Virus record (IMG/VR): IMGVR_UViG_3300033061_001635
Location: 64,001 to 128,000 of that record
Reading direction: 5' to 3' (one strand)
DNA: 64,000 nucleotides
DNA from: a virus
Taxonomy: Duplodnaviria; Caudoviricetes
Shown here: positions 3,790 to 60,037 of the stretch, piece by piece
Numbering within the stretch: the stretch's first letter is position 1
Layout: every line of letters begins with the position of its first letter
Program-made: the position numbers and the translations under genes
The notes under the pieces: model-generated
What the model was told of the DNA's origin: nothing
Databases searched by the model: none
The model's input: only the letters and a program-made list of their open reading frames with translations

Positions 3790-6700
3790 ATGAGCTATCA
3801 TATTCAAAAGGTATTAATTCCCATGGGAATCCAGTAACTATGGAATCTGTTTTATTCTCTATCCTGTCAACACTGCCAAAAAAAGATCTAAAAATCATTT
3901 CATTTTGTAATTTGAAAAAATCTGGCAATGGTGCATATTGTAGTTGATTATTTTGTATATTAAGAGCATACCACACATAAAAACTATTATTTATCGGTTC
4001 TGGCATATCACCAAAATCAGTAGGTATATCTGGTTTACCTACTCCTTGTCTATAGTTATTCGTTGTTCCGGGACGATATATTGTTGTTAATCTATCTACG
4101 CCACGCAATAGTCTTGGTATTTTTTTTACCATTACCGATATATTATTTTGATCGAATAGATTTACAGTTGCTGCTATTGTAGTTGGCTTTCCCGTTCTGT
4201 CGCCATCTTGTAGTAAGCCAATTCCTCCAGGACTACCGTTGCTACCATTGCAAGGCGGCATACCCGGCAAACTAACAGTATCAATAGTTTCAGGAGCAGG
4301 AGTATAGTTCTGTACTGGTATCTTATATGTTTCTTGGACTATGACGATTATTTCTTCATTGGGTAATGCATCTTGAAATGCATCCCGATAAAAGGTTTGG
4401 TCTCCATTAATATTAAAGGTTCTTTTTTTTACAATCTCTTTCCAAGAACTAATAGCCGATCCATATTCAGATTGTATTCTAGTCATTTCTTGATTAACAA
4501 ATGCTTCATCAACAGTATACGTATAATCCTGACCCTGAATGCTTGGACCACTATTCTTAAAGGTCATGTTTTCTCCTTGCATATCTGATGGGGCCTTAGC
4601 ATTACAAACATTATCATTAGCATTCCGTGACTGAGTCATACCATAGTTTGAAACTTTACAACTATAGGCAGTTTTTACTAATACTTTTGGGTTTGCTTCA
4701 TAATCCGGGAAACATCCTTGATTAGGATCTAAATTAATCCAATAGTGATTTTCGTTTAATTTTTTGTATTCTATGGATATAGGCCCAGTACCAGATATTA
4801 CGGGTCCGTATTTTGGTAAAACATCAGTATTAATTTTTAATGGATGAGCATCTGGTAAACTTGATCTTAAAGTAGGGATGTTATTTATTAATACTGTTTG
4901 ACTTCTTATAAGATCAGCAATATCGTACTCCTCCTGATATAGCTGTTCCATTTTATTAAAAGTATTTTTTTTATGACAATTTGTAAATGATGTAGTCGTT
5001 CTAGAATCACAAGATCCAGAATCGGCAGGCAACGAATTATAATGTTGAACAATATATTTTAAATTATCAGATGCTAAAATAGTAGATGTTCGATCAGGCT
5101 TCCCAACAATATTATCTAATGATGTTTGTATGCCAGTATTTGTAATCAGATTGAACCTGTCTTTTAATGTTGTTAATTCAGAGCTGGTAATGCTTCCAAT
5201 TGGTATATGATTATAATAATCTCCTTCTACCTCTAGTATGCCACTTTGAACTCCAGTAGGCAAGGTTTGATTATAGTATGTACGAATAATAGATATATTT
5301 TTAGGCATATCGTTATATGCTGATGATAAATTAAGATTTTCAAATATTGCCTGTTCTTTTTCTCCTGATGCAATAATTACAACTTCTCGATTTAATTTTT
5401 CTGTTCTATAAAGCAATGGCTTAACGAATTCATCTTTGCTATACGAATATCCATAAGTTTTGCTTGCGAACCACGCTGGAGACGGGGTTAAATTAGTTAT
5501 GCTTTCGTTTATAGTCCCAGTGCCTGATGGTTGAAATAATGTAATTTTAGCATGTTTAATTTTGTCGTTCTCATGGTTATTTAATATTTCCGAAATATTT
5601 TTTAATTTATTACTACAAATATTATTTGATAATACATTCTTTTCTAAAAATATTGAAGCATCACCATATGATCCTATGGAATTGCATGTAGATTGCAAAT
5701 CAATAGTATCGTTTATCGTTTTACTAGTATTATTTAAGCCCCATATATTATATTTGTTTTTGACTTTGTCTTGAACTGTTGTTTCGTTTTTATAAGTTAA
5801 AAATATAGTATCATTATCATTAGGACACATGATATCATAGCCCGACTGTATAGGGCTAGACATTACAAATACTGAATTATAAGTATTATTTTGCAATATT
5901 AAAGCTTTTTTAGCTATTGTATTAGATAAGGTTGTTGTTCCAGACATCAGAATAATAGAATCATTATAACTAAAAATATCATATGGTATTCTTCCAGACA
6001 TGGTTATCATTTTATTCCCGCTAATATCAACATTAATAATATCATTATGCCAAAACTGTTGAGTAGAACTACCAAAAGACAAAACTGCATTTTGACTCAA
6101 ATATAAATTAGCTTTATTGAGATTTTCAAATTTATTACTGGTATTGTTGGCATTTGTAATTAGTGCAGCGGTTTGACCAGCTAAATATAATCCACTATTA
6201 ACTATATCATATAAAATATCACCACTGTTAACAACTGTATTGTTGTAAGAGTTTGGGGGATTTAAAGCAGTACCATCAGAAACCCCTGATATATTTTTAA
6301 TAAATTTGGGATCTATTAATTCTTTATATGATGTAATTTTTTTATATGTAAATTTTCCAAAGTTGTTATGTCTAGATAATCTAACAAATTTATATTGATT
6401 ATTTTTTAATATTGGAGTATTATGATATTTAAAAATGCTCGCCTCGGCAGTATGCCATAAAGAAGTAGGTGTTTTAAAATTTAATAGAATTTTTTCAGAA
6501 GACCCGAACGGATATTTTTTATAGTCAGGCATCCATACGTCTTTACCTTCGTTTTCTAATTCTGTAGCATATGATGTTGCTCTTAAAAATGATATTATAG
6601 CTGAGTAAGCTGCATCATTATTTATTCCCGCAATACCAGCTAAAACTCCAACAGCACCCATACCTCCCATTGCTCCGGCAGCAGCAGTAGAAGTCATTAT

Positions 6701-35160: not shown

Positions 35161-38100
35161 TTATGCTGTTCGTCCTATAATACTTTGTTTAGCGGCACTA
35201 TTCATGCCTCCCTCAAACACAGTTTTGTCGTATTGCATATGAGAATCTTGGGAGATATTTTTTGCGTTAATAGAAGTCTGGTCATATATTTTCTGTTCCA
35301 TATTGCCCTTTATGCTGTCTAAACCAATGTGGTGAAGTGATGTCGTTTGCGTAACATTAGCAGATAGTGATGTTGGTATAGCATTCGCGTGTTCTCCAAA
35401 TTGAGCCGTGGCAGTTTGGAACGTGTCGATAGATGATGATAAACTTTTTTGTGCAGAATTAAACTGTTCCGTAAAATTGGCCCCAATTTGCTCTGTGTAT
35501 TCATTGAACTGACCAATAGCATTTGTAACAGCATCCTGTATGGACGATGCTATATTAGCCGTATCTATACTAACATTATTAGATACACCACCAGAGGAAG
35601 ATGCTGTTTGTTTGAGGGTTTGTCCCGCATTAGAAATAGGCGCCAATTGCGCCAGCTGTGAGGTTCCACCAGCAGCAAGATATTTCGGACCGGCTATGCC
35701 TCCATTGGCCAAATAATTAACAATTCCACCTCTATTAAAGTGACCACTATTAATAGCATTAAGGATAGGCATATGCTTTTGGCTAGATTCTCTATTGACT
35801 ACAAATTCTCCCGGAGTCAACATGGCTGGAACATTATCCGTTCCAGATGCTCCAATAAGAGCACCATTATTAGCATAAATTAAGCCACCAGAACTATGAT
35901 CTTTGGCTTTTTCGTCATGCTGTTCTAGTCCTGTTTTATATGCATGGGTAGCTACGTGATTTCCAAGATCTGGAACATATAATGGAGAATGGGTTTGTCC
36001 TATTCTTGAATAATCTCTGAGAGAGTAAGACTTTCTAGGTCCCAAAACCATAGGATCATGTACAACGCGCGTTGTTCCTGGCATATCAGCAAATCTTGAT
36101 TCTACTTGACTATTCTTCATTTTTGTAATTGGTGAGCTCTTCTTAAGGGCGTTTTCTACTTGTTTTTTTGCGATTTCTCTCTGAGCAGCATATGCCATTT
36201 GTTCATCAGGGGTCATTTGAGCAATTTCTTTTGCTGGTTTAAAAGTTTGTTCGCTAAATTTTGTTACAACATCAGCTCCGGTGACCATATCAGCAGGGGC
36301 GCTTCTACCTGGATGAAGAACTGGGGCAGCTGACTGATTAGGCAATAATTCATTACTTAATTGAGATGTTAATGAGTCATCGAATAGGCTCTTAGAATTA
36401 TCTATCAAAGACTTATCTACCTTACTTTTTACTACATAAGCTTCGCCTCCGGTGGCCACATACGAATCTCTCGCATAAATAACCGGAACTTGTGGTGCGT
36501 CATGATGAAATGATCCTACGCTTCCGTGTCCAGCTCCTCCTCTATTGATATCCGAGGCATTTTCTGCCATTCTGGCTATAGCAGCATCTCTCATAGCTGA
36601 CTGTGGAATTGGTTCACTAGCGCCAAGATTACCGGTATTTCTAAATTTATTGTTAGGATCAAGATGCCAATCTCCACTTGTTCCGGAATGAATGTCGGTT
36701 GTTTCTGATCCCATATGTGCAAATGCAGCATCTCTTGGAGACATTCCGTGAGGAACAGCCGTTTCAGAGGCTATTCTAGCTGCTGCTATCGCAGCATCGC
36801 CTGAAGTTATCTGTATAGCTCTTCCAGTTTGAGCCATAGTCTCTGAACCAATTCCTTTTCCAATCCCCTCAACAGCTGATCCTGCGAGTCTTCTTACTCC
36901 TTGTGCAGCCTGATCTACATGAGTAAGTCCTACTTCAGTTGCGGCGCCAATCGGATCGGCAACTTTTCCAAGATTAGAAAAACCAGCACCTATTCTAGCT
37001 CCTCCTAGTGCTCCTACACCAGCAACCATAGCGGCCTGATTGGCAAGTGCGCCTGTGCCAACTTCTGCTGGTCCTTCTCTGAATTTTGTTCCATCAGCAT
37101 ATGTTAATGTTGTTGTTGGTTCTAACTCAGATTCTGGTAATACAACATGAGCCAAACCTTGTCCCATAAATATGGCTGCTCTCTCTGGTAAATTCAATAA
37201 AGTTCTACCCTGATTATCATAATATTCTTTGGATTGATCAAAATAATTACCAACCATACTTTCTGTTCTAGCTTCTGATACCGGCTTTTCTCCCGCCCTT
37301 TCCCCATAATTTCTTTGATAATGTAGACCAGCAGTAACGTCAGCGCCACTGGCCCCTCCCATAAACTGAGCAGTTCCTGATGCCAATCTATCTGCCTCTA
37401 ATTGTTCACCCATAAACCTTTCGGTCATTTGTCCTAGCACACCAGCAGAATCATACGATGACAATGCATCATTTGATCTTTGTTCTTTGTCTGATTTGCC
37501 TCCTTTAGCTAGATAATTTACCGGTCCTCCTTTACTATATCCAAATGGTCTAGTCAAATATGCTTGTCTATCATCCATTTGTCCAAATGGTCTTGTTAGA
37601 TATAATTCTTTTTGACGTTGATAAATCTGGCGTTCTTCTTTTTGACTTTGGTAAATCTGGCGTTCTTCATCTGTAATTATTCCATCTTTATTTAGATCTT
37701 CATCTTTGTCAATATTAGTTCCTGCTTTGCCACCATCGGCTAAATAATTTATCTTACCTCCTTTACTTTTATTGATAGAATGTAATAATCCCAAATTCTC
37801 CTTTGTTGACTTTGCATTAACAACAAACTCACCAGGGGTCAGCATCGCAGGAACAGTATCGGTTCCTTTTGGTGAAAAATCAATTAATTGTCCATTTTCA
37901 GCATATATCAATCCTCCGCTAGCTCTTCTGGCTGGTTTTCTGACCTTGGCTTGGTCTTTAGATTGAGATCCAAATAATCTGCCAATAGAGTCAGCAGCAA
38001 GTCCTGCCAAAGCTCCTGTTGTGCCATATTTTTTAGCAAAATTAACTGCACTGCCCAACATAGATTTTGGAGTTTGGGTCTGGAATGGTTGATCATCTGC

Positions 38101-41100
38101 ATAGCCCATGGTGCGATTGTATTGCTTTAATGCTCTGTTATATGATGGATTGTCTGTTGGTTTTTGACGCAAAGACGCCGAAACAGCAGCCTCTTCTTCA
38201 ACAAAAGCCTTTTGCATTGATTCAACTATAGATGGCTCAATAGGCTTAGAGGTTCCTCTAGTAGCTTGGCGAGCCCTAATGTATTCATCAAATGACCTGG
38301 CTCTATCAGCAGCACCACTAACTAATGGAGCATACTCTTTTGGTAGATTTTTTACTACTCCAGGAGTTAATAATCCAGCATCTTCTAATGCTCCTATGGC
38401 ATCAGAGGCTGCATGAAATCCTTCATGATTTAATGCAAAAGCATCATCTGCTAATTTTATATTTATTTGTCCACCAATACCAACACCTTCATCTAGAACA
38501 TCTGGCATAAAGTTTCCTCTCGGTTTTAGTCCCGGAGTGACTTCCGCATTATTTTTAGACTTTTCTACAAACTCAACTATTCTTTTTGCTAAAAACTTTT
38601 CTCCTTGAGAAGTAAGTTTGTATTGTCCACTAGTTGTTCGTCCAGATGATTTAAGATCTAACATTTCTGGTTCCATGGCCTTGGCTGCCCTGGCATTTAA
38701 TGTAGCAGAGTCTCCTCCTCCAAAACCATATTCTGTGCCCCGCATGGGTTGAGCAGACATCGCAGTTTTCTTAACCGACTCAACCACAGATTTGCCCGCT
38801 TTTCTAGTTTGCTGGTCTATGCTCTCCCATAGCCTCGCTTCTTCTGCGTCATTGAGCTTTTCAGTTATATTGTATCTGGATTCATCTAAAGCTTGCTTCA
38901 TATCTCTGTCTATAGCTGATTCTGCTTTAGCTTGTTCTGTTGCTCTTTGTCTTTGTGATTTTTGTCCACCAAGAATACCTTGTCCTCTACCACTTAATTG
39001 TTCAGCAGTTCTTGCGCTATTTGCCATGGAAACTATTCCAGACGTTATTTGAATAAGATCAATAGCGTCTTGAGGAGTTGATTCTCTCTTCATAACTCGT
39101 CCAGCAATATCGGGAACTTTTCTAAGAGATGCTCCAGCGGTAACTACTCCAACAGGAGTAAGCATACTAGCGGCAGTAACTCCAATAGCTGTTACATCTC
39201 CTGGTTCGGATGTTCTTAAATAGTTTGTTCCGTCACTAAATAATACATTACCATTTTTATCAGCATATTGTATAGGTCCATGCTTCTGAATCATTTCCTG
39301 CAAATCTTGATCTTTTTGAATTCTGTCTAAAGTTTGAACAGAGAGTGCTCCGGTTCCTCCTTGAGAAAAAATTATAGGAGGAACACCACCACTATCTTTC
39401 CATAAAGGATTTGTTGTCTGAGAATCTAAAGGAGGTAATATTTCTGCATCTGTTAGTGGACCAGCCAACATAGGATCTACGCCAAGCGACACAGCATCTG
39501 CTTTAGTTAACTTAGTTTTTGTTTTAGTCTCTTTAGATGTCTCTCTAGAAGCTTCAAATCTGTCTCTGGCTGATAATCTAGCAACATTTTTGCCGTCCGC
39601 AGCAATTTCCGTACCAGATGTGTGTCTTTCAGATCCGTCAAGTTTAAATCCTGTTGCGTAGTCTAGTAGTCCTGACATAAAATCAGAAACCGCTGCATCT
39701 CTTTCTTTAGTTCTTTTTGTTCTATCTGAGCCAACCATTTCTGGCGGAAGTGTGGAGTCAAATAGTTCTGAACCAAATAGCTTAGGTTTATCGGCACCAT
39801 ATTTTTTAAATAAATCTCCAGCTTTTTTAGCTTCAAAATAATCTTCAGCATTTTTATAAGATTCGCCAGCCCAGCGTTCTCCGTCTGGCTTATTAACGCC
39901 TCTTCCAAGTCCTATCGGATTTGACCCAGCACTGGCCCTGCCAGTAGAACCAAACTCAACCTGAGCATGTCTTAATTGCTGTAGTCGTTTCTCTCTTTCT
40001 TTATCGCTTATACCCTCTTCTTGAGAATGTTGTCTATATACGTCTATAATTTTTTTGCCTTCGTCTATAGCAAATTGTACTTTTCTTGCTGACTCTTGTG
40101 CTGTTGCTGTTCTGGAGGAAGTTGCCTGCTGAGCAACAGCAGCCGTTTGGGCTTCTTGATTGGCTGTTGGCTGAGTTGTAGTTGGCGATAAGGGTTCTTG
40201 TGTATTAACAGGTTGTGATTTTGTTGTATTAACCGGTGAAGTTCCGGAAGATGTATTAAGTGGTTTGCCATCTTTGTCCAGACCCATAGTAAATAATTTC
40301 TGTTGCGCTATCTGACGAGCCATGGCAGCCGTATTGTTAGGATCATTAGCCAAAGTAACCCAGTCCTTTGTTGCAAATTTACTAAAATCTGCATCTCCTA
40401 TATCATCGCCTGTTGTTCCATCTGCTTTTGGATATTTTCCTGTTGTAGTAGAAATAGTTGGTTTAGTAACAGCAGCCATCTGTTGATTTGTCTGTGTTTT
40501 TGCTAATTGGCCTGATGAAGAATTAAGCATGCCACCAGAGGGGTTTGGTAATAATAATTCAGTATTAGGATTAATAGTATTTGGAACATTTTTATAAGGT
40601 GGAGGCAGAATCAAATCAGCAACATTTTGAGTTGATCTTGATCCTTCCATTTTAAACATCTTACCTCTTGGAGATGTCCCATCAGGATAATATAACATTC
40701 CTGATTTTAGTAGTGATTTTTCTTTTCTCTCTCTGATTTCTGGTCTGAATCTAGATAAGTAGGCTTGTTGTCTTTCGTATCTTATTTGTCCTTTAGCTCT
40801 GTCTAGCATTTCTTTTCTTGTGTTAATGCCGCTAGATTTAGTTGTCTTATGTAATGATCTTAGATTTTGATACTCTGTTTCTTCCTCTTCTGTTCTAGAT
40901 TTTGATCCTTTGAGCCATAAACTTTTTCTTCTACTATATTGTTTACCCATGCCCAATTTGAATTCCTTCATGTCTATTGCATCATCTTTGTTCAAATCAA
41001 AATCAGAAAAATATTTAGTAAATTCTTTTTTATCTAGTAAATTATTTTTGTTTTTATCAAACTGTGTAAAGTCAGATACTAATCCTACTTTGTCAAAATA

Positions 41101-44100
41101 TCCAGAATTAATAGACTGTAATAATGGTAAGTGTTTTTGTGTAGACTTAGAATTGATAACAAACTCTCCAGGACTCAACATAGCAGGAACAGTATCCGTG
41201 CCCTTAGGCTTGAAATCAATAAGTTTTCCATTACTAGCATATATTAATCCTCCAGATGATCTGGCTACAGGAGGAGCAGCAACAGCCACCCCAGGATTTA
41301 CTATGTTGTTACCAGCAGCATCCTTTCCTATGTTCGCATCCTTCATATTTCCTTCAACACTTGCTCTTAAATCATCAATACTAATACGTAAATTATCATT
41401 AGAATCTTTTAGTATAGATTGTGATTCCGCTAATTCGCCCTGTCCCTTTGTCGCGCTTGAACGTAAACCCACGGACTCTAAATATCTTTCAGCAGCCTTT
41501 TGCATACTAGGGTCTGTTTTACGATCTTGTAAAGCAGCCAATGACTGTTGAACTAATGGATTATTGGCCATTCCACTTTCTATAGCCATTTGTTTCGTTA
41601 ATTGTAGTTGTTGTTTTTGGAAATATTCGGCTACTGCTTGATCAACATCTACTCCCGGTTTTCCTTGATTCTGAGCATATTGATTTCTTATTTGTAGTTC
41701 TTGAGCAGCTTTTACTCCGGGATCTTGTGATAAGGCTAACGTTTCTTTTCTTTGATTAGCAAGAACAGTATTCCCAGCCCTAGTAGCTTCTCTTACATTC
41801 CCTGTTTTAAATAAAGCTTCATTAAATGCTTTTCTAGCATCTCTTTGATTATATGGACTATTTAATCCACCAGAAAGATTTCGTTGCAGTCTAATAAAGC
41901 TTTGATTAAGCTTATCTGCTTCTTCTGGAGTATTGGTCAATAATTGATTAACAAAATTTTGTCTATTATTTTGTAATTCTGAAGTATGTTGAAGATCACT
42001 GAATGCTTTATCTACTAATTCTGTACTATTAGCAAGCATATCTAATGCTTCTCTATTATTTTGCAATTGATCATCTAATTTATTAAGCTGTTCAACATTG
42101 TTACGCAAAGCGTCTTTATCTGTAAGAGTACCCTGTTGTTTTTGTAAAGTATCTCTTTGTTGAGAAAGTCTTATTTGTCTGTTCTGAATGCCTTGGACAG
42201 TTGTTTCTCCGCCAGCTAAATTACTAACATCTCCCATGATTCTATTGCTTTTCTCATTATATGTTTCACCATATCCGCTTAAGATTTCTCTTAAGTTCAT
42301 ATTACCTTCGTTAGAGATGTCTCTCGATTTTCTAAAATAGTTTTGAGCTTCTTTAGCTGCTTTGCTAGCTTCGTTCAGTCCTTTTGCAAATTTATCTAAT
42401 GCTCCTTCTTTAAAAGAAGACAAGTTTTTAACAGAATCTAATAATTTTTTACCAAAATCACCCAAAATATTCGTACCATCTTCTAATTCTTTTCTAAATT
42501 CTGATACTTGCATAGTATTATCAGCATTATTTTCTTTGGCTTTCTTAGCCATGTTTTCAATTTTAGCAGTTGATATCTGTTTCAATTCGTCTTTTTGCTG
42601 TCTAGATAAATTAGGATTATTTTCTATTTCATTTTTAGCAGTATCAACTGCTGCTTTTTTAAGTTCATCTACTCCTGAGCCAGCACTCTTGTCTAAAACA
42701 GTTGCTATACTTTGTGTAATATTTTTGGGTATATTTTGTTGTAATTGAGCACCACCAATTAATTGTTTTCTAATTCCAGCATCTAATCCCGCTGTGGCAG
42801 ACTCTAATGCTTTAGTAAATTCTTCTTCAGAGTATGCATTAGGATTATCTAGAATATTTTTTTCTCTTAATTTTGGACCAGAAACTTTAGACTCTCCACG
42901 TAATGATGATGCATATTGGGTCGTTGCCTCTACCCTAGCATCAGACTCAAATGATATTTTATTAACAGACTCATTTACTATGTCTGCTATTTTATCAAAA
43001 CTAGCAGCCAATCGTCGTCCAGCTTTATCTGCAAGATCCATAGCTCTTGCTAATTTTGCGCTTTCTTGAGAAGCTTTTGCTAATTCATCATTAGCTAAAA
43101 ATTCATCTTGTGCTGCTTTACCAACGATAGTTTCTTTACCTTGTTCCCCAGCAGACATATATAGAGCTAATTTTTTAGGATCAGATAAAATCATGCCTTT
43201 TAAAGATTCTCTAACTATATTTCCAGCTTCATTACTGGGATCCATGATTTGATCATTACTGAATCCTTTTGAATAAAGTCTTTCTAAATCTCCGTATCCA
43301 GTATTGGCTATTTTTTGGTAATTTTCTAATTCTTTTTGAGCATCAACGCTTGCCTCTTCCGTACCATAAGAGCCTTTTTTGGATTTTGCAACTGTTACTG
43401 GATCAAGGTCTTGGTAGTATGGATTCATGCCAACGCCAATTTCTCCAATGCCTAATAATATTCCTCTACCAAAATCTGTCCAATTACGATCATTTTCTGC
43501 TTTATTTTTTCCAGCTGTTGCTGTATCTGCTGTACTTTCTATAGCGGTATCTGTTAAGGCCTTAACCGACGATGCTGTTTTTGCTCTCAAATCAACATTA
43601 TTAACATCCTTACTTAATTTTTCCAAAGCATTTGATAGACTATCACTAGCAGCAGATAATTTGTCATTTAATAAAGATCTTGTCATTTCTTGGGCAGCTT
43701 TTTTCGCTGTTCCAGAAAAATCAAATGCAGCATCAGCACCAGCATACAATGCTGTGCCTATAGCAGCAGCGGCCCCTAGCATAGGATTGATAGCGGCTAA
43801 TTGTGCTGATGTTGTTAAGCCTACAGATAGTGTTGTTGCTGCTTTGTCTATTCTAGCCCCTGCATCTGCTGCTTTTATTTTTCCCTTATCTGTTTTAGTA
43901 TCAAATAATGCTGATGATATATTTTGGCCTTGCCCAGCAACCAACCCCGCGGCCAACCCAACGTCACCAAGTCCTCGCTGCATACTTCTTCCTAAATTAC
44001 CAGTAAAATATCTTTCTCTAAATGCTCTATTAATAGGACTATTTCTAGTATCCATTAATCCAGCAGCCCCAACGCCTCGCTCTCCTCTCATTTTAGCTAA

Positions 44101-47100
44101 GTCATTTATAGCTTCTCTTCGCTTACTCACCTCTTCTTGTGCTAATTTTTTAGCCTCTTCTGCTGAAGCTACACTAATGCCTCTAATAGTTCCAGCATTT
44201 TTATATTCTTCCATCCTCGTAGCTATTAACTGCTGATCCATTTGTCTGAGGGTTTTTCTATCTCTCATAGAATCAGAAATATATTTTTGAATATCATTAC
44301 CGCTAATATTTAGATTTTTTAATTCACTTGCTGTTATATTGCCTTTTATACCAGTAGAAGTTTGTGTTCCAGTAGCCACTGTTGTAGCTCTAGAAAAAGC
44401 TTGTGTCTTAATATCATTTAATTCAGAAGATATAGCCTGTGCAACCTGATCAGCTAAGTCTGATGCAGCTATTGGTTGTTTGGACGATGATACTATATCA
44501 GCTTCTATAGCCTTTTTTCTTTTATCTATTAATCGTTGCTCTTCTTTTTCTGCTAAAGATAATATTTTTTGTTGTGTAGCTCCTGATCCTAGTTTTTTAC
44601 CAACTGAACTTTCTTTAAATCCAGATTCTAAAAATTGACGCTTAGTAACATCAATAAGTCCCTTATTTCTGATATTAGATAATGCTTTTTCGGCTTCTAT
44701 AATCTTATCTATAGATGCTCCACTGATTTTTAGTCTTTCTAAATCTTTGTTCCCTGCATCCAATACAGCTTTTATAGATAGTTGTTTATTTTCATTCAAT
44801 AAACGATTTAAATATTTCATGCCGTCTCCGGCATCATAAAGAGTGTCCACAAATGCTTTTGTATCTTGCAAAATAGATGGATCTACTGCTATTGTACTAG
44901 TATCGATTGAGTTTGGACGATTGCTCGTAATATTCTGTGTTTTTCCTAAATAACTTGTTATATTTTGCAATCCAGAAAGAACACTATCTACGCCACCACC
45001 AAAAGCAAATTTTTGTACTCCTCCTACAATTCCTCCTTTATTATATCCTTGTATTTTGTCTGCTTTATTTAATTGATGTAATTTATTATATCCTATTTTT
45101 TTAGCAGCGTTCTTATTAACAACAAATTCACCAGGAGTTAATAGTGCTGGCACCGTATCTTCTGAAGATAGTCCCGTATTTCCTCCTGATGCAAATTTTC
45201 TGATACTTCCGCCACCATTCCGAGATAAAAATGATAGTTGCTGGGCTTTAATATGCTCAGCATATTTTGGATCATTCATATTTATAACATCTGGACTATT
45301 AATCAAATCCGCAGACTTGTTATAGCCACTTTGAAGAATCCATGCCGGATCACTAGGTGGTGGCCAAGTTTCTTTTCTTCCATATAGTTTAGGATCAAGA
45401 TAGCTATGATTTTTAGTCCATTGACTTGGATCAAGGGGAGTTTTCTTTACATCTGAGCGATTATTAAAATAGTATGACCAAACAGATTTTGCAGATTCAC
45501 TCACTTGATTTCTGTCTGATGTTAACATACTTCCAGCAGCAGTGGCAGCTTCCATTACTATGTCATATAATCTTGGACCATATCCTTGGGTTGCTTTTGA
45601 TAAACCAACAGTAAATAAATTGCCGGTTGCTTTTTTAGCGCTAACAAAACCTTGTCTATCGTTATTTTTAAAGTATGTCGCCGTTATTTCAGATCCATCA
45701 GATCGTAATCCTATTTTGCTATAATTTTTAGGTTTTTTCTCTTGTGATTTTTGTAAACCGGTTACGCCAGCAGCCCCTATAGATCTTTCTGGCATTCCTG
45801 CTGTTAAACCAGCACCCTGAAAAGTCCTAGCAATAGAATCAGCAGAACCATACATAGAACTTATCAAACTAGACATGTCAGTGTCTTCTAATCCTAATGC
45901 CATACCTCCATCAGCATATTTAGGTAAAGTTTTATAAAAATCTGGATTCAGTCCACTCTCCCCAAAAGCCTGAGATAAAAGCTCAATAGCTCCTTTATTG
46001 TTTTCTACAGCGGCCGACAATAAAACGGGAATTAGTTCATTTTTACCCAAATCCCATTGTGTCGCACCAAGAGTGCTAAAAAGGTTTTGAGATACATTAT
46101 TTTTTTTCGTTATTTTTTTAACAGAGTCATGGGCTTCTGCTATAAAATTTCCAGAATATGGACTCTTGCTTGTTGCTGTTGGGAAAAAATGCTCAAGTCT
46201 ATAATCTTTTGGTCCTGCCCACTCGGCATTCTTTGGATCTTTATACCATTTTTCAACAGCATCTTTACGCTTTAATAAGCTTTCATGCAGTTTATCTATA
46301 ATTTCAGGATGATTATCATATAAATGTCCTTGAATATCATGAAAAGACTCATGAGCAAGAACACCTTTATGAAGTCCTCCTGCTGTTTTTATAGTATCAT
46401 CATTGCCTTCAAATAGTATTCGCTGATCAACAAATTGTTTAAGTGCCTTATATTCATCTTCTGGTAATTTACTTTTATATTTTTCAAGATTATGTCTAAG
46501 AACCTTGGGCATTAATCCACCCTGATAAAATGCTCCTGTTTGTTCTTCTGGGGGAGCCTTTTCAGATTTTCCCAACAGTATTGACATCACACTGCTTTTA
46601 CTTTTTTCAGCAAGACTTCTTCCTGGTATAAAATCAATAGGTTCTGCTTGACCAGATGGCATTTTAAGATAGCCATCAGATGTTAACATTTCTTTTGGTA
46701 GAATACTTGCTAATATTGACTTGTATTCTTCTTCAACTTTACCACCTTTAGCAAAGGTATAATGTATCGCTTCGTGCCCCTGGCCCTTCAATCGCATTAT
46801 TGTTTCTAAATTATCGTCAATCATCTTTTGATAACCGGTAATCTTCTTATTTTGCGGACCGTTTGATCCTCTAATTTTAGATTCCGGAATGGGTAATCCT
46901 AGATTTTGTAAGGTCTGAGCTAAAATACCGGTTTGATTAGGATTTCTGGCTGATAAAATACTAACGTTGTCTATTAAAGATGGCTCTTGTTTTAATGCTT
47001 CTGATAAGTGTTGTCCTAGGGGTGTAAGCTTGCCTTTCTTTAACATCTCTTGAACCAAAGGCATATCGTCTTTTCTTGATAAATCTAGTTTACCATCAGG

Positions 47101-50100
47101 AAGTCTAATTTCTCCACCAGTAACCAGAGTATCATCAAAATCAAAAACCATTTCTTTAAATGGGCCGGTCGAGTTATTGTTTGGGAATATTTCTCCATAC
47201 TTTTTAAGTAGTCCGCCGCCTGATAATTTCTGAACCATCTTATCATTCTTTGGTTCTGGTATTCCATATTGTGCTCTAAAATATTTTTGAAATTCTTCAA
47301 CAGCCTTGCCTCTACTATTACTATCTATTGTTCTTTTAACTTCTGTTGGAATATTAGGATCAATACCAAATATTTTTGCCGCTTTAGGTCCGATGCCCAT
47401 TGGAAAGTCGATTGGACGAGTTCTTAAAGCATCGTCCAATATGGTAGCATCTGCTGATCCAAAAATTTGTTCTAGTAAAGCCCCTTCAATATTTCCTTGT
47501 CCTAATGTTTCTCTTTGTTTTTTAGTTAATTCTTTAGGAGTAATACCAAGAAGTTTTGATGCTCCTTGTACTATTTCTGCTGTTTGTCCACTAAGATAAT
47601 CAATAACATTTTGGAATTCTGTTGGTAATCCTCTTTGTACTATGGAGGCATTTATTGACCTGTCTTTGCCGGACGAATCGGTGCCAAGATTCCAAGTTTC
47701 TGGACCTAATAATCCAGTATATCCTAATGGATTTAATCCTACTAAACCTAATTGTGTCGATGACAAAACAGCATTTGTTGTATCTTTTAATGCTGTTGCT
47801 TTTTGAGTTCCTTGTGATTGTTTAAATTTATCTATTAAGTAATCTCTTGTTCTTGTATAGTAAGCTAATTTATCTGCTTTAGTTTCTGGTCTAAATGCAG
47901 AATTCCAATATTTTAATTTGCCACCTTCAGCAGTATCAGATACTGTTTTTCCTGAGAATGGGCCAAAACTTGAATCATTTGGTAATCTTTCAGATCCAAA
48001 TCTTTTTAATATCTCTGTTCCTTGAGCTGGTAATATTCCAGAAGATTTTTTAACAGCTGTTTCTGTAGCTACTTTTGCTAAAATAGCTTGTTGTATAGCG
48101 GAAGATGGACCAGTTGGAGATGATGATGAATCAGTATCAAATCTTAGTCCATATTTTGCAGGATCGCTGGTTGCTAACTGTCTAAGAAGGCGATATGGTT
48201 CAAATGATTTTTTAGTTTCTAGTTTTTTCTTTTTATCTTTTAAGGACCGATAAAGCTCTAGTTGAGCAGCATACTCTTTGTCTGTCTCTGCTTTTTTATT
48301 ATCTGCGCGAGTTATTCCTGTTGCGGCCAACTGCTGGTCTATACCGGATACTTCTTCTTTGTATGCTGCTTCTGCTTGTTCTATTAGTGTTGGCAATACG
48401 TTGGATCTGTTCTGTAGTTGAACCATATTGTTTTTTAATAATGAAAATACCGAGGGGGAAACAACTTGTTGAAGACCCTCTAGATTTCCATTTAATACTA
48501 AATCCCTAACTTGTGTTCCACTTATTCCGCCTGTTCTTTTTAGATTAGAGACTCCATATCCTGCTTTTTTATATTTCTCCATTTGCTTTTCTGTCTTGTC
48601 TGCAACAAAAGCCATGCTTCCTTCACCAGCTAATGTAATCTGTCTACGACCATCCTTTTCTCCCATATCAAAAGCTAAAGGAACACTCATATCTCCAAAT
48701 GCCTTTGGTAGAACAGAGGCCCCCTTAGATCCGAATCCTGCTTTGGCCAGTGCTAATCTAAAATCTTTATCAAATACTGCTGTTCTATAATTTTCAGAAT
48801 CTACAGCCTCATCGGATCCGACTAATGCTATAAAGTCTTCATAGGGTATGCCAGCAGCTTTGGCTGCTTCCATCATAGATTCGTGACCTACTGTTGTTGG
48901 AGCAAATCCTCCCCAAGTTAATCCTATTTTTTTCTTAGTTGCTTCTACTAGTTCATTTCCTGTTTTACGACGTAATCCACCGTCGTCTTTTCGTCCTAAT
49001 ACTACTGATTTAGAACCTATTCTATCTTCTAATAAAGCTTCTTCTTTTGCCGTGTCTAATGGAGCCCCTGTTGTGCTACCAGCTGTTCTACCAAATAATC
49101 CAACACCACTAACGTCCCTCATTGTTCTTTGTTTAAGAATTCTATCTTTTTCTTCTTTTGTAGTAGACGATAATGTATAAGCTCTATCTACTTCCTGTAA
49201 CATACCCTCTAACTTATCCTGAGAAACTGTGCTTGTAAGCAACATAACTTCTGAAGCTTTAGTTATATCTTCTGGGGTTAGGATAGGGAAGCGATTTGTT
49301 TGTCGTAGTGTTCCGTTATCGTTGGATCCTCTTCCGGTAACAATACTACTTTTACCAGCTCCGGCCACGCCATATAGTGCTTTTAGAGAGTTTAAACTTT
49401 TTTCTTTTCTGGCTTTGATGGCTAGATCAGTTAAATACTCCGTATAATTTCTTGGTCCATCAACACCGGCTTTTTTCATAGCCTGTTCAATAACTTGGGC
49501 ATTTGCTGGATCATTAATTACATCAAAATCAATATATCCTAAATTTCTTGTAACCTTACCACCATCTGTATATTGTTGTCTTTGAATTCCAGCACTACCT
49601 AATAATTCATTTAGAGTAGAGTCTAATATTCCCTCCATATTAGAATCTAGCATTGGTCGTTTTTGAATTAGAGTTGTTAAAAATTCTTCTTTACCATTAT
49701 CTTCTGCTTTATTTATAACATCTTGCTTAACTCCGCCCTTTAATAGTAAGTCAGTAATTTTAGGATTTATTGGTCGATATTCACGAGCATTTTTCTTTTT
49801 TTCAGCTTCAAAATATAATGCTGATCCTTCTTTAGAAACTTCAGGATTGTCCGATCTTCCCGTTCTTATCGTATCTCTTCTTAAATTGCTTAATACGCTA
49901 TTAAGCATGTTGTTTTTATAGCTACGACCATATACAACATCGGCGCTATTATATCCGCCATCTTTCTCTGTTAGAGCATCAAAAGCATCAGCCAATCCAT
50001 CATTATCACCAGAGAATAATTGACTTACTCTATTTCTATATTGATCAAAAGCGCCTGATGATTGTGTCCTTATTGAATTTAATAATTGATGTGTTAATTC

Positions 50101-53100
50101 ATGATATAATGTATTTTTTTCTTGATTTGGGAAATATCTGGTGCTACTTAAACCCACTGTTCCTCGTCCGGTAGTTTCGGTAATTTCTTTTTTAGCCGCC
50201 ATTGCTGCTTTTCTAGCATAAGCTTGTTTATCTTTCACTTTAGATATTTGCATAGTTAATGCAGATTTTTCATCATAAGCCTTTTTAAATGCAGCATCAT
50301 CAATTGAAAAAGATCCATCATCAAAAGTTTTTGTTGGCGTTTTCATTATCTTCTTAATTTCTTTTTCTTTTTCCTCCCATAATTTTTGATAGCCATATAG
50401 ATCTTGTTCATCGGCCGTGGTGAACCCATACTGAGATAAATCTAACTTATCAAAATCTCTAGCGCCATAAGGATTTGCATAAAAAGTACCACGAGAACTA
50501 ACGTTTTGTCCTACTCCACCAAAATCAATATTTTGTGGTAAAACTTTAGACAAATCCTGTTCTGGTAAACCTATATATTTAGCAAAATTTGCTAGATCGC
50601 CCACTAAATCATTTCGTCTAATTTTAGTCTTAAACAAACTTTCAAATTTTTTGCGATCAAAAGCTTGTGACTTAAAATGTTCAGCAACTGCATTCTGATC
50701 AACATTTATTCTTTCATCTTTTGGATATTGATCCCACGCTAATGATACTTGTTCATCATTTAACTTCTTTTCCATTTCTTTAACATAAGCGTTCGTAATG
50801 CGCTTGGGAAATTTGGTTTGTCCTGTACCGAATGGGGTTGATTCTGCTTTTCCTCCGGCCATGAATCTTTGAATTCTTCCTCCAAGATTTTTTTTATCAA
50901 ACTTTTTTGGATCTTGTTCAATTAATCTTTTATTCTGCTTACCCTCTGGTAATGACAGATACTCTGCCTTAGTTATAGTTTCTGCTCGCTTCGGTCCTGT
51001 ACCAGAATATGAAAAACCTAATCCTTTATCTATTAAGTTCTGTTTTAGATTATCGTCAACAAAAAGCGGTCTCCCACTACGTTCTTTATCTGTCTGTTGA
51101 CTATATCCTTTAGTAAAATTCTCTGTTACATTTTTACCTTTTGTATATTGTGTTTCAGTTAATTTTTTTGCTTCAAGAGCAAGATTTTTTTTCCATTTTT
51201 GGTTACTTCTCATTTCAAATGTATCAACTCCGACAAGTCTACTACTAGTATCATATGCCGAAGTTTTTGGTGTGAACTTTACTACTGGACTGTCTCCGTC
51301 GTAAACATGGTCAACAACCACATTTAATGGCTCTGGGGCTTTTCCTCCACCGCCAAATCTTTGTCTTTTATTTGATTTTCCTGCTCTTATACTTCCACCA
51401 CCCCCATACTTATTCATATTATGAAGATTATCTGATCCTATAGTTTCAACAGCTTTCTTTCTTATAACAAATTCTCCTGGCTCTAACATTGCTGGTACAG
51501 TATCTCCACTGCCAGTACCAGGAACAACACCACCTCGTGCAAATTTTCTTATAACTCCGCCATTAGCTTTACCATCTGGTCCTCTTTTAACTCCTGTGGT
51601 AAATCCTGTAGTAAATTCTGTTAATGCTTTAAATCCCTTAAATGCTGCAAGAACTGCTAATGCTGGAAGAATTCCTTTAACGGCGTCTGCTACTTTTATC
51701 AAACCGCTAGTTAAAGATAATGCACCTCTAACTAAACTCTGAAATCCTTTAGATTGACCTATCTCACGAAATAGTGAGAAAAATTCTTCACGAACTTTGC
51801 TTATTTGATTTGCTAAACTAAGTTGTGCTGTAGCAGCATCTTTAGCCAGAGATGCCTGTCCTTGTTGTGCAACCTTTAATGCCTGCTGGGTCACAGTGAA
51901 TTGTTGAATAAGAGGAATAACTTTGCCAATTTGACGAAATCCACCAAGTTCTTCAACTATTCTGGAAAAATCTAAACTTCTAGGATCTATCTTGCCTAGT
52001 CCTTTGCTTAATAATTCAACGGCTTTATATGCTCCAACAAATTTACCTTCTGTGTCTGTTAGATTAACACCAAACTCTTTTAGCGCATCTATTGTTGTTC
52101 CTCTTTGAACACGAGTAAATATTGTCCGCAATCCAGTAGCAATAGTTTCAGCACTTTCACGACTAGTTGCTCTAATACTAGTAAATACCGAAATGAATTC
52201 ATTTAAAGCGTCTTTTCCTTCGCTTACTCCTTTGCTCGCAGTAGCAAATACGCTACCTGTTCTTTGTACAGCCGTAATGATGTCGCTGGATTCTACTGCG
52301 AATCTTGCGGCAACAGCATTAACTGCTCCTAATGATGCCTCCAAATCATTAGCGCTAATACCAAACTGTCTCATTATAGCAATACTGCCTTCGACAGTCT
52401 CATTCATATTATCGAATGATGGAGCTAAGCTACTAAGAGCTAAAGCCTTTAGAGCTTTCTCAGTTTCTCTAGCACTCAAACCAGCCTGAGCTAATGTTGA
52501 TGCTACTTGAGTTAACTCTTTAGAACTAACACCAAATTCTACAGCTAAATTAGTAATTTGAGATTGCAGTTTGGATAATCCAGCAGCAGATTCACCAGTA
52601 ACTTGTTGTAGCTTTACAAGTTCTTTATCATAATCAATAAAAGCTTGTATACCATTATTTATACTATTGGTTACGCCATATATAACGCTTGTAACAGCAC
52701 TAAATGCAACGAATCTTCTAACTGCTAAACCAGCCTGTTTACCGAATTCCTGCATCTCTGTTGCGGCATTTTGCAATCCTCCAGATGTTGATGAGGATAC
52801 TTTATTTAATTTAGCAATTGCTGACGAAGTTTGATTAATTTGTTGAGGGACATTGTTAATTTTAACAGAATTTACGCTATTACCAAAAGCCTTTATTGCT
52901 GATGTGGCAGCATTGGCTGATTTGACAGTTGAGGCAAAATTAGCATTTAGAACTTTTAATGAAGACGATAATGCTGCAACATTTTTTGATGCTGCCGGAT
53001 CAAGTTTAAACTGTACGTTTGCATTAAGAGTGCCAAGATCTTTTTTAATCTGAGCAGCTATTTGCTTAACGTTTGTTGGACCTTTAAGATTCAACTGTGC

Positions 53101-59284: not shown

Positions 59285-60037
59285 TTAGTAATAAATTATA
59301 TTGTTTTGTTCGTTCTTTATCGAATCCAATAAGCTATGTGAAATTTCTTTGGCAACCGTATAATTATCAAAACTCATGCAAAATTTATGTAAAGTATCTT
59401 GGTTTTCAATCATGGCTATCATGGGTTTTTGATATAATATTACATTATTATTAATATTCATTATATCTGTATTTAATTGATCAATTCTACTACCATCATA
59501 CACCAAAAAATAATAACTGTTATTCATTTTAGCATTTGTGGATAAAATATGACTAATAGCATCGTCTATTATTATATCATATAAAAAATTATGAGCTTTC
59601 CACTTAGATTTTTGCATTAAGGAGTTGCAGATGTCATTATGTTTTTCTGGTAAAAATGGCCTAAATGACCTTGATCTGAACATAAAAGATATTGCAACTG
59701 GCGGAATATCTAAGTTGGATAGTTTGGCAATAATATTATCAAAATCAATAGAAGAATCAGAGCAGTCGATTAGCACATATAATCTGACCGAAGAATTAGC
59801 ACTTATCATTTCCTCCAAAGCGCCATCTGTAAAATTTTCTTCATATTGATTATATATATTTTGAGAAAAACCATATCTACAAGCATAATTTTGAATATGA
59901 TTATATCCCTTATCATCAACAGATATTTCTTTAATATCCATAATTTTAGAAATAATATCTTTGGAACATCCTTTTAATATATTTGAATTATCGAGAGGAG
60001 TAGCAAACATGCATTCACAACATTTTGTATTTACCAT
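59285..60037 (-). CDS. Hypothetical protein with N-terminal Cys cluster
   Basis: 250-aa ORF; KCCEC...GC...AC; AAGGA RBS. Confidence 0.65.
   Translation of the reverse strand: MVNTKCCECMFATPLDNSNILKGCSKDIISKIMDIKEISVDDKGYNHIQNYACRYGFSQNIYNQYEENFTDGALEEMISANSSVRLYVLIDCSDSSIDFDNIIAKLSNLDIPPVAISFMFRSRSFRPFLPEKHNDICNSLMQKSKWKAHNFLYDIIIDDAISHILSTNAKMNNSYYFLVYDGSRIDQLNTDIMNINNNVILYQKPMIAMIENQDTLHKFCMSFDNYTVAKEISHSLLDSIKNEQNNIIYY

Follow-up and report, generated by a model that had tools for sequence, protein, structure and literature searches.

A di-glycine joint marks cassette borders in a giant phage tape measure protein and may serve in its proteolytic maturation

A giant tape measure protein with recurrent joints

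The window analysed here comprises 64,000 nucleotides (nt) of a tailed virus (Caudoviricetes), positions 64,001 to 128,000 of the complete 175,133-bp IMG/VR virus record IMGVR_UViG_3300033061_001635. Its minus strand carries, at 35161..53121, an uninterrupted open reading frame (ORF) for a giant tape measure protein (TMP) of 5986 amino acids (aa), and every site of the recurring di-glycine motif in question falls within this single ORF. We find that the motif is a TMP-specific joint, which flanks a small conserved unit and stands at the borders of swappable cassettes. Its most likely use would be in proteolytic maturation of the TMP, and to this reading as a whole we assign a probability of about 0.5. 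Near the N-terminus, the protein matches PF10145 (PhageMin_Tail; aa 188-380, E 2.1e-21, scoring 77 bits where 33 are required). If all 5986 residues formed an extended helix, a tail of about 900 nm would be expected. Relatives of the TMP in public metagenomes number 547 and range from 3292 to 10476 aa. Many of them bear the label of a TP901-family TMP and are encoded on 100-250 kb contigs; for one, the source is a metagenome-assembled genome of Sphingobacteriia. Residue i of the TMP starts at nt 53121-3(i-1) of the window.

The motif is enriched in the tape measure protein

The first-pass annotation of the window had proposed that a motif of the form [FY]xxGG recurs at the boundaries of cassettes and is a candidate processing signal. 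All sites that it listed are present where it placed them. The strict [FY]xxGG form occurs 15 times in the TMP, versus 2.8 +/- 1.6 copies expected from 2000 shuffles (maximum 9), and 1678 times across 120 giant relatives, versus 270 expected. Twelve of the 15 copies are found at cassette or unit borders, and the three internal ones (aa 2198, 4585 and 4798) equal the number predicted by chance. Thus, the enrichment of [FY]xxGG was confirmed, but the pattern itself had to be relaxed: five of the listed sites (KLSGGG, YLADGG, YLAKGG, YLANGG and YLAAGG) have a leucine three residues before GG instead of F or Y, and the true consensus is therefore hydrophobic-[A/S]-x-GG. The 1084 distinct isolated copies collected from the relatives yield the joint consensus GG-x-[VI]-Q-[KR]-[FLY]-A-x-GG-x-V, with a period of 9 residues and one to three tandem copies. 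The TMP has about 20 such joint copies (21 in the codon analysis described below). Motif density in the TMP is 2.5 per 1000 aa, compared to 0.46 in the 181 other ORFs of the genome (of at least 80 aa), and the ORF scan did not find the motif in other virion proteins of this genome. Within the genome, the motif is specific to the TMP, and it is near certain that the joint is specific to tape measure proteins.

A glycine-rich protein could produce such sites by composition alone. Glycine accounts for 8.9% of the TMP, and plain GG pairs are only slightly enriched (60 versus 48 +/- 7), which would fit with a chance origin. However, the strict motif is enriched five- to six-fold both in the TMP and in the 120 relatives and, unlike plain GG, is tied to homology breakpoints. 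Shuffle, shifted-motif and site-class controls refute the compositional artefact, and the probability of a chance origin is negligible.

Motifs coincide with homology breakpoints

Breakpoints were called from all-against-all BLAST comparisons of the 120 giant relatives without reference to the motif. Association was scored at a distance of at most 12 aa from a breakpoint, and circularly shifted motifs served as the null. More than half of the motifs (945 of 1678) are located near a breakpoint, versus 183 +/- 16 shifted motifs. Reciprocally, 846 of 2840 breakpoints coincide with a motif, versus 162 +/- 14 under the null. The association is about five times the null and is little changed by closing gaps of 40 or 80 aa between high-scoring segment pairs. 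Of the [FY]xxGG sites, 53% are near breakpoints, and of the [LMIV]xxGG sites 25%; other GG pairs reach 14.5% and random positions 10.6%. The difference between [FY]xxGG and other GG indicates that the aromatic position matters.

The main breakpoint peaks in the TMP are at aa 585, 753, 1182, 2126, 2635, 2715, 4022, 5059, 5138, 5738 and 5825, and all except aa 4022 are positioned at joints or unit edges. Cassettes, numbered S1 to S6 in the map below, are variably present and reordered among the relatives, for example S1>S2>S3, S3>S2>S6 or S4>S3. One and the same cassette can follow different neighbours, always via ...GGx[IV]QKFAxGG directly followed by KV..., and its end is marked by ...QKLAxGG, after which differing blocks follow. 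In the TMP itself, motifs and cassettes (aa ranges) alternate in the order RFGGGG, 594-746, GGRIQRFMAGG, 758-1183, QYTDGG, 1189-1965, KLSGGG, 1971-2122, TFAKGG, 2128-2401, KYADGG, 2407-2635 and the second conserved unit, which is the bracketing initially described for these six blocks. Across homologous TMPs, the motifs are thus distributed non-randomly with respect to boundaries. The breakpoint test strongly supports the initial proposal that the motif marks cassette boundaries and extends it to hundreds of relatives; we are almost sure that the motif is a boundary marker.

The motif flanks a conserved unit found in lambda-type tape measure proteins

Self-comparison of the TMP uncovered five copies of a module of 60-85 aa, which we named the GEFV unit. 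Its layout is ...FAxGG-x-VPG-x-G-x-x-DTVPAMLTPGEFV-x-x-K-x-A-x-x-x-G-x-x-L-x-x-x-N-x-YAxGG, and 79 diverse copies have the consensus GG-x4-FAxGG-x-VPG-x-GN-x-DTVPAMLTPGEFVIRK-x-AV-x3-GA-x2-L-x2-MN-x2-AxGG. Since [FY]AxGG is present at both ends of the consensus, the motif represents both flanks of the GEFV unit. It is not free-standing, a point missed in the first-pass annotation, but is the flank of a conserved TMP unit of ~55 aa, with a 9-residue period. Each relative has 2-9 GEFV units; the first begins at about aa 523, and the end of the last is a median of 146 aa away from the C-terminus. A scan of IMG/VR confirmed 568 further GEFV stretches. No Pfam or NCBIfam model covers the unit.

The unit is also found in well-studied phages. 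Residues 725-794 of lambda gpH match two unit profiles (A1, E 8.9e-5; A2, E 2.4e-9; both as single-target values). The GEFV unit itself spans residues 731-783 (FATGG ... GEFV ... YATGG), directly after the Pfam domain Tape_meas_lam_C (627-701). In the TMP of a lambda-like Burkholderia phage, FSEGG / RAGGG ... GEFV ... HFATGG is located ~70-130 aa from the end. Mycobacteriophage Douge gp16 has two GEFV matches, and the region of both copies is unresolved in the cryo-electron microscopy map (PMC13033339). Altogether, 38 GenBank phage records match the unit, almost all within annotated TMPs, and lambda-type TMPs contain it once. Among the cultured phages of this set with the unit, or with two units around an insert, are Brevundimonas vB_BpoS-MaInes, Streptomyces phage Satis, Nodularia vB_NpeS-2AV2 and Burkholderia vB_SBP33. 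The motif thus derives from a small unit that the TMP of lambda has as well.

Map of the tape measure protein

The units, joints and cassettes are arranged along the TMP, from its N- to its C-terminus, as follows (window coordinates).

51343..51561, minus strand: GEFV unit 1, A-type, aa 521-593 (GGVIRKFARGG ... DTVPAMLEPGEFV ... KYGGGG ... RFGGGG)
50884..51342, minus strand: cassette S1, SNase-like, aa 594-746 (PF00565, E 4e-4, scoring 21.1 bits where 21 are required)
50851..50883, minus strand: joint J1, aa 747-757, GGRIQRFMAGG (breakpoint peak at aa 753)
49573..50850, minus strand: cassette S2, aa 758-1183, containing an HExxH motif (aa 1007) but no Pfam family
49558..49584, minus strand: joint J2, aa 1180-1188, QRQQYTDGG (breakpoint peak at aa 1182)
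47227..49557, minus strand: cassette S3, aa 1189-1965, Walker-A kinase-like and HIGH nucleotidyltransferase-like, then a second sub-block (PF01467 and PF16581 weak)
47212..47238, minus strand: joint J3, aa 1962-1970, MVQKLSGGG
46756..47211, minus strand: cassette S4, aa 1971-2122, HAD-like by its DxDxT motif only, with no Pfam or PDB match
46741..46767, minus strand: joint J4, aa 2119-2127, IHYTFAKGG (breakpoint peak at aa 2126)
45919..46740, minus strand: cassette S5, aa 2128-2401, with HExxH at aa 2257
45904..45927, minus strand: joint J5, aa 2399-2406, LPKYADGG
45217..45903, minus strand: cassette S6, aa 2407-2635, the candidate GNAT of the first-pass annotation, for which searches gave no matches
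44992..45216, minus strand: GEFV unit 2, B-type, aa 2636-2710, then tandem joints GYNKGGIVGGVQKFAFGGG (breakpoint peaks at aa 2635 and 2715)
41272..44991, minus strand: conserved helical body, aa 2711-3950, common to nearly all relatives from ~aa 3350
41077..41259, minus strand: GEFV unit 3, C-type, aa 3955-4015 (VAR-SSGGLIYA ... DTVPAMLSPGEFV)
37942..41076, minus strand: variable region 2, aa 4016-5060, rare among relatives, in part of higher G+C, with HExxH at aa 4899
37729..37923, minus strand: GEFV unit 4, C-type, aa 5067-5131 (RR-ASGGLIY before, NYLADGG at the end)
37498..37539, minus strand: joint J6, aa 5195-5208, YSKGGPVNYLAKGG
35914..37491, minus strand: variable region 3, aa 5211-5736, found in 2-5 relatives
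35665..35895, minus strand: GEFV unit 5, C-type, aa 5743-5819, with three tandem joints (FNRGG, NYLANGG and KYLAAGG)
35164..35661, minus strand: C-terminal 166 aa, following the last unit

The domain names initially attached to the cassettes fared unevenly. The SNase assignment holds at the Pfam threshold, a cytidylyltransferase-like fold is weakly indicated and HAD is recognisable from DxDxT only, whereas GNAT and PD-(D/E)xK are candidates only. PDB sequence searches with cassettes S3, S4 and S6 returned nothing usable. Cassette S1 is present in 40 of 119 relatives, with the motif at its N-terminal end in all 40. By features, the nearest named ESM Atlas clusters of S2 include the large polyvalent protein-associated domains LPD1, LPD5 and LPD23 (scores 0.82-0.89, to be taken as a lead only). 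Cassette S3 matched only 105 times among 1.84 billion representatives, and nearly all of these matches are parts of TMP-like proteins with lengths of 1500-7300 aa. A protein of 598 aa without the motif, P0182, may be a free-standing relative of S3. Directly after unit 3, an EF-hand-like pair (DKNKNNLLDKKEF ... DLNKDDAIDMKEF) is located at window positions 40957-41070 (aa 4018-4055); its Pfam EF-hand matches are weak (E 0.003-0.06), and some relatives carry precomputed EF-hand families. Upstream of J6, at window positions 37540-37665 (aa ~5153-5194), there are tandem peptide repeats, EERQIYQSQK / EERQIYQRQK and then YLTRPFG twice, of which the DNA copies are 93% identical.

Variable regions are expanded insertion slots

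Sixteen two-unit TMP segments from other viral contigs were aligned around the junction of their units. In eight of the 16 segments, units A and B are directly adjacent (...NKYAxGGxV followed by VPALLTPGEFV). The other eight have a single insert of 150-300 aa exactly after YAxGGxV, which ends in [F/A][A/T]xGG before unit B. In the TMP, unit 1 belongs to the A-type and unit 2 to the B-type, so that variable region 1, which comprises six cassettes, is an expanded A/B slot. In this region, each independently swappable cassette is joined by the joint alone, in one to three tandem copies. Units 3-5 belong to a third type (SSGGLIYAxNG ...) and bracket the two further variable regions. The TMP variable regions are thus insertion slots that have expanded. 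By eye, the single inserts in the slots of eight IMG/VR contigs (L105, L106, L109, L112, L113, L119, L121 and L124) have a common E-Q-[VL] ... D ... E-x-K pattern. This pattern suggests that such inserts are PD-(D/E)xK-type nucleases and a common TMP cargo. The G+C content is 0.41 at window positions 36001-40000, versus 0.33-0.37 in the remaining TMP gene and the genome. This part encodes variable regions 2 and 3 and is common to only 1-9 of 119 relatives, suggesting that the two regions are recently acquired cassettes.

The peptide is conserved and the DNA is not

Copies of the unit are 67-84% identical in DNA over 45 nt, with no long exact repeats. In the codons of 21 joints, the usage of GGT/GGA/GGC, GCN and Leu codons is as in the rest of the gene, and synonymous sites differ. 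Since the peptide is conserved and the DNA is not, selection acts on the peptide, and the joint very probably functions at the protein level. A DNA recombination signal at the motif was rejected in view of these short stretches of limited identity and the randomised motif codons.

A different reading would be that the motif is mainly an evolutionary trace: cassettes recombine within or between GEFV units, whereby each insertion brings along or duplicates the flank of a unit, and the joint is merely a flexible linker that is tolerated. Such a process could account for the single motif of empty slots and the one motif per side of filled slots, which looks like a duplication at an insertion site. 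Extensive cassette shuffling and the rarity among relatives of the variable regions with higher G+C, which suggests recent acquisition, are in line with it as well. However, a neutral linker would drift, whereas the joint peptide is kept at hundreds of junctions of unrelated cassettes despite randomised synonymous sites and no long DNA identity. Neither would the importance of the aromatic position be expected. We therefore consider a mere trace to be quite unlikely.

Predicted structure of units and joints

AlphaFold2 modelling of a single unit, with the alignment of 79 sequences, gave a predicted local distance difference test (pLDDT) score of 63. The model of tandem units has a predicted template modelling score of 0.51 and a pLDDT of 61; the cores reach 66-77 and the joints stay below 50. 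Each predicted unit core consists of a hairpin over VPAML/EFV and two helices. A Foldseek search of the tandem-unit model against the PDB found nothing at E <= 0.001. The models fit with joints that are exposed flexible segments between small folded cores. In the explanation that we favour, a common partner would recognise the joint as such a segment between folded parts.

The same features could be those of a motif that is never cut and serves in docking or registry, binding a common partner such as the tail assembly chaperone, the lumen of the tube or hub, or the same motif on sister chains. Three or six very long chains would thereby be kept in register, and the cassettes held unfolded in the tail lumen. 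The 9-residue period with one to three tandem copies is as expected for multivalent binding or a short beta-structure, and low confidence in a monomer model is typical of segments that fold on binding. Strong conservation of the joint peptide across unrelated flanks and confinement of the motif to the TMP also agree with docking. By contrast, ordinary TMPs have the motif only around a single C-terminal unit, although chaperones and the tube contact the whole length of the protein. In lambda gpH, residues about 690-817 are unresolved in the virion and hence not rigidly docked (PMC12617516). In addition, no binding partner emerged from the analysis. We regard docking without cleavage as less likely than not.

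Cleavage of tape measure proteins and its precedents

Knowledge of TMP cleavage dates back to 1974 for lambda and to 1973 for T5. In lambda, a cut in the glycine-rich region of gpH follows tail assembly, whereby ~14 kDa are lost and the fragment stays in the virion; both the cut site and the catalyst were stated as unknown in a 2025 paper (PMC12617516). The glycine-rich region of gpH, residues 709-745, overlaps the first flank of its GEFV unit, and cuts between residues 710 and 737 would yield fragments with computed masses of 14.6-12.2 kDa. In T5, pb2 is cut after R1127 into its body and a fragment of 92 residues, which has enzymatic and plug functions and is retained in the tail (PMC10038345). 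The cut sequence, PR/AEGGMMY (the slash denotes the cut), places the cut immediately before the only AxGG, and the last 730 residues of pb2 have no GG other than G1130-G1131. The signature R-A-x-G-G-hydrophobic-hydrophobic-Y is common to this AEGGMMY site and to RR-ASGGLIY of unit 4; the corresponding sequence of unit 3 is AR-SSGGLIY. From 486 distinct unit starts, the consensus [K/Y/F/R]-[A/S]-x-GG-[VIL]-[VI]-Y was obtained, and R1127 of T5 thus aligns with the [FY] position. If the T5 analogy holds, the TMP would likewise be cut between the [F/Y/K/R] position and A-x-G-G, instead of after GG as previously assumed. A third precedent is Tal of TP901-1: here, a glycine-rich joint that precedes the catalytic domain is cleaved, and cleavage is abolished by Gly-to-Arg changes (PMC11409707).

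By analogy with lambda gpH and T5 pb2, the joint would most likely be used for proteolytic maturation of the TMP, either once the tail is assembled or following ejection. In that case, the lumen of the tail would contain a series of separate enzyme pieces leaving ahead of the DNA. The protease that cuts may be a host enzyme. Zweig and Cummings reportedly described host involvement in T5 tail-protein cleavage in 1973, as the title of their work suggests. For this reason, lack of a phage peptidase is only weak evidence against cleavage. That some or all joints undergo maturation cleavage has, by these precedents, somewhat less than an even chance. More doubtful is a broader version, in which [F/Y/K/R]-A-x-G-G would be a general TMP processing code. 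After tail assembly, it would be cut by a protease, either of the host or a so far unrecognised one of the phage, or by the GEFV unit itself. It would then also be the lambda gpH site, and giant TMPs would be polyproteins that load the tail lumen with up to about ten separate enzymes, which would reach the cell before the DNA does.

Several observations weigh against joints being proteolytic sites. Across the complete 175-kb record, C39 peptidases (PF03412) had no match at E <= 1, and neither Ulp1/C48 (PF02902) nor Prok-JAB (PF14464) peptidases matched in this genome. The analogies to C39 and ubiquitin-like proteases drawn in the first-pass annotation thus find no corresponding enzyme here. 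HExxH blocks are absent from 58 of the 120 relatives, with no Pfam peptidase family matched. The only trace of a head protease is a candidate prohead protease, a 250-aa ORF on the minus strand (window 59285-60037) with a sub-threshold match to Peptidase_S78 (E 0.014) and a faint one to Zincin_1 (E 0.07). Tandem joints, up to three in a row, exceed the need of a single scissile site. Judged by mass, the lambda cut could be located 10-25 residues upstream of FATGG. The similarity to T5 extends over eight residues only, and although the best pb2 match of the unit-start profile is exactly at 1127-1134, 215 of 1000 shuffles attain its score of -3.0 bits. The motif is found at only 30-34% of breakpoints, and the internal boundary of S3 is an S/P-rich linker near aa 1667-1684 without the motif. 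Finally, the AlphaFold2 unit models are of low overall confidence, with only local features usable.

Three specific proposals were set aside. Homology to T5 pb2 beyond the octamer is unsupported, given the shuffle result. The HExxH cassettes were rejected as a universal self-processing peptidase, being absent from about half of the relatives. For an HK97-type prohead protease, there is only the sub-threshold S78 match, and the motif is absent from other virion ORFs, so that a site shared with head maturation is unlikely.

The GEFV unit could itself be the catalyst, a small module with invariant D and E residues, which would process itself by cutting its flanks and would also act in trans on isolated joints. 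Across the 79 diverse unit copies, D, P, G, E and F vary hardly or not at all, units always accompany joints, and the catalyst of lambda gpH cleavage was stated as unknown, as noted above. However, no peptidase or self-cleaving family in Pfam and no PDB fold matches the unit, and its folded core has only ~35 residues. The host involvement in T5 cleavage, reported by title only, also speaks against it. A self-cleaving unit is thus very unlikely.

Comparison with known systems

With its C-terminus, the TMP plugs the tail-tip hub in lambda, T5 and Douge (PMC12617516, PMC10038345, PMC13033339). The GEFV unit of lambda gpH is located ~70-120 aa from the C-terminus, similarly to the last unit of the TMP described here. 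Lambda gpH differs in having one unit and no cassettes, and its cut, by mass, is perhaps slightly upstream of the motif. In T5 pb2, the cut separates the TMP body from a C-terminal enzymatic/plug fragment, and an eight-residue signature is common with unit 4, but there is a single site and no GEFV core. In Tal of TP901-1/Tuc2009, the glycine-rich motif NGGGNSGGGD at the joint between structural and catalytic parts of a tail protein is cut (PMC11409707). Unlike the TMP, Tal is a tail-associated lysin, and its motif is without an aromatic or basic position and occurs only once in each chain.

Polyvalent proteins (Iyer et al. 2017, PMC5512222) are similar in that many enzymatic domains are united in one virion-delivered polypeptide, for which processing is predicted. 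In contrast to the TMP, they are head-packaged or conjugation proteins, and their processing is ascribed to embedded zincin-like peptidases; the paper describes no conserved junction motif and never mentions tape measure proteins (PMC5512222). Candidates for such enzymatic effector domains in the TMP are the SNase at threshold, the weak nucleotidyltransferase fold and the HExxH motifs. An embedded processing peptidase typical of polyvalent proteins was not found, considering the patchy HExxH distribution and the absence of Pfam peptidase matches reported above.

In polymorphic toxins, VENN in CdiA and DPxGL in Rhs mark the junction of scaffold and module, and the Rhs motif is also a self-cleavage site. 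As in the TMP, a short conserved peptide is located where a constant scaffold meets a swappable module. Polymorphic toxins, however, have one C-terminal toxin and an immunity gene, whereas the TMP has many serial internal cassettes, no immunity genes that we could see and a different motif. Among viral proteases, adenain is an Ulp1-like enzyme that recognises GG-containing sites. The Ulp1-like pS273R of African swine fever virus cuts structural polyproteins into virion components at GG-containing sites (PMC12172490). Di-glycine processing by C39, Ulp1-like or JAB peptidases resembles the TMP case in the recognition of GG-containing sites, but the hydrophobic residue of the TMP joint is at another distance from GG. 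In the literature, we found no earlier description of the joint, the GEFV unit, the slot or giant modular TMPs, which is not proof of absence.

Genome setting

Megablast of the region against GenBank phages gave no match, and hence no close DNA relative. Comparison of the neighbouring genes with PHROGs yielded almost nothing, and most neighbours are without a family match. Very large ORFs of 1172, 1461, 874, 431, 646, 2163 and 2542 aa are located downstream of the TMP gene on the minus strand (window 3776-35129). The one of 1172 aa has a match to a PHROG minor tail protein (E 2e-5) and FN3 domains. These large ORFs presumably encode tip and fibre proteins. On the plus strand, ORFs of 128-269 aa are found antisense to the TMP gene (40910-41551, 42362-42748 and 43427-44236), and these are most likely spurious.

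Implications

The joint provides a concrete conserved element for the question of TMP cleavage, which lambda itself also has and which recurs about 20 times in the TMP described here. For the insertion of foreign domains into TMPs, the space between two GEFV units as the slot amounts to a rule, useful for understanding and engineering protein delivery by phage tails. The several hundred giant TMPs form a family in which natural cassette swapping is readable. If the joints are cleaved, the tails of these phages would be multi-enzyme delivery magazines. If they are not, the joint would be a new short linear motif with a partner yet to be found.

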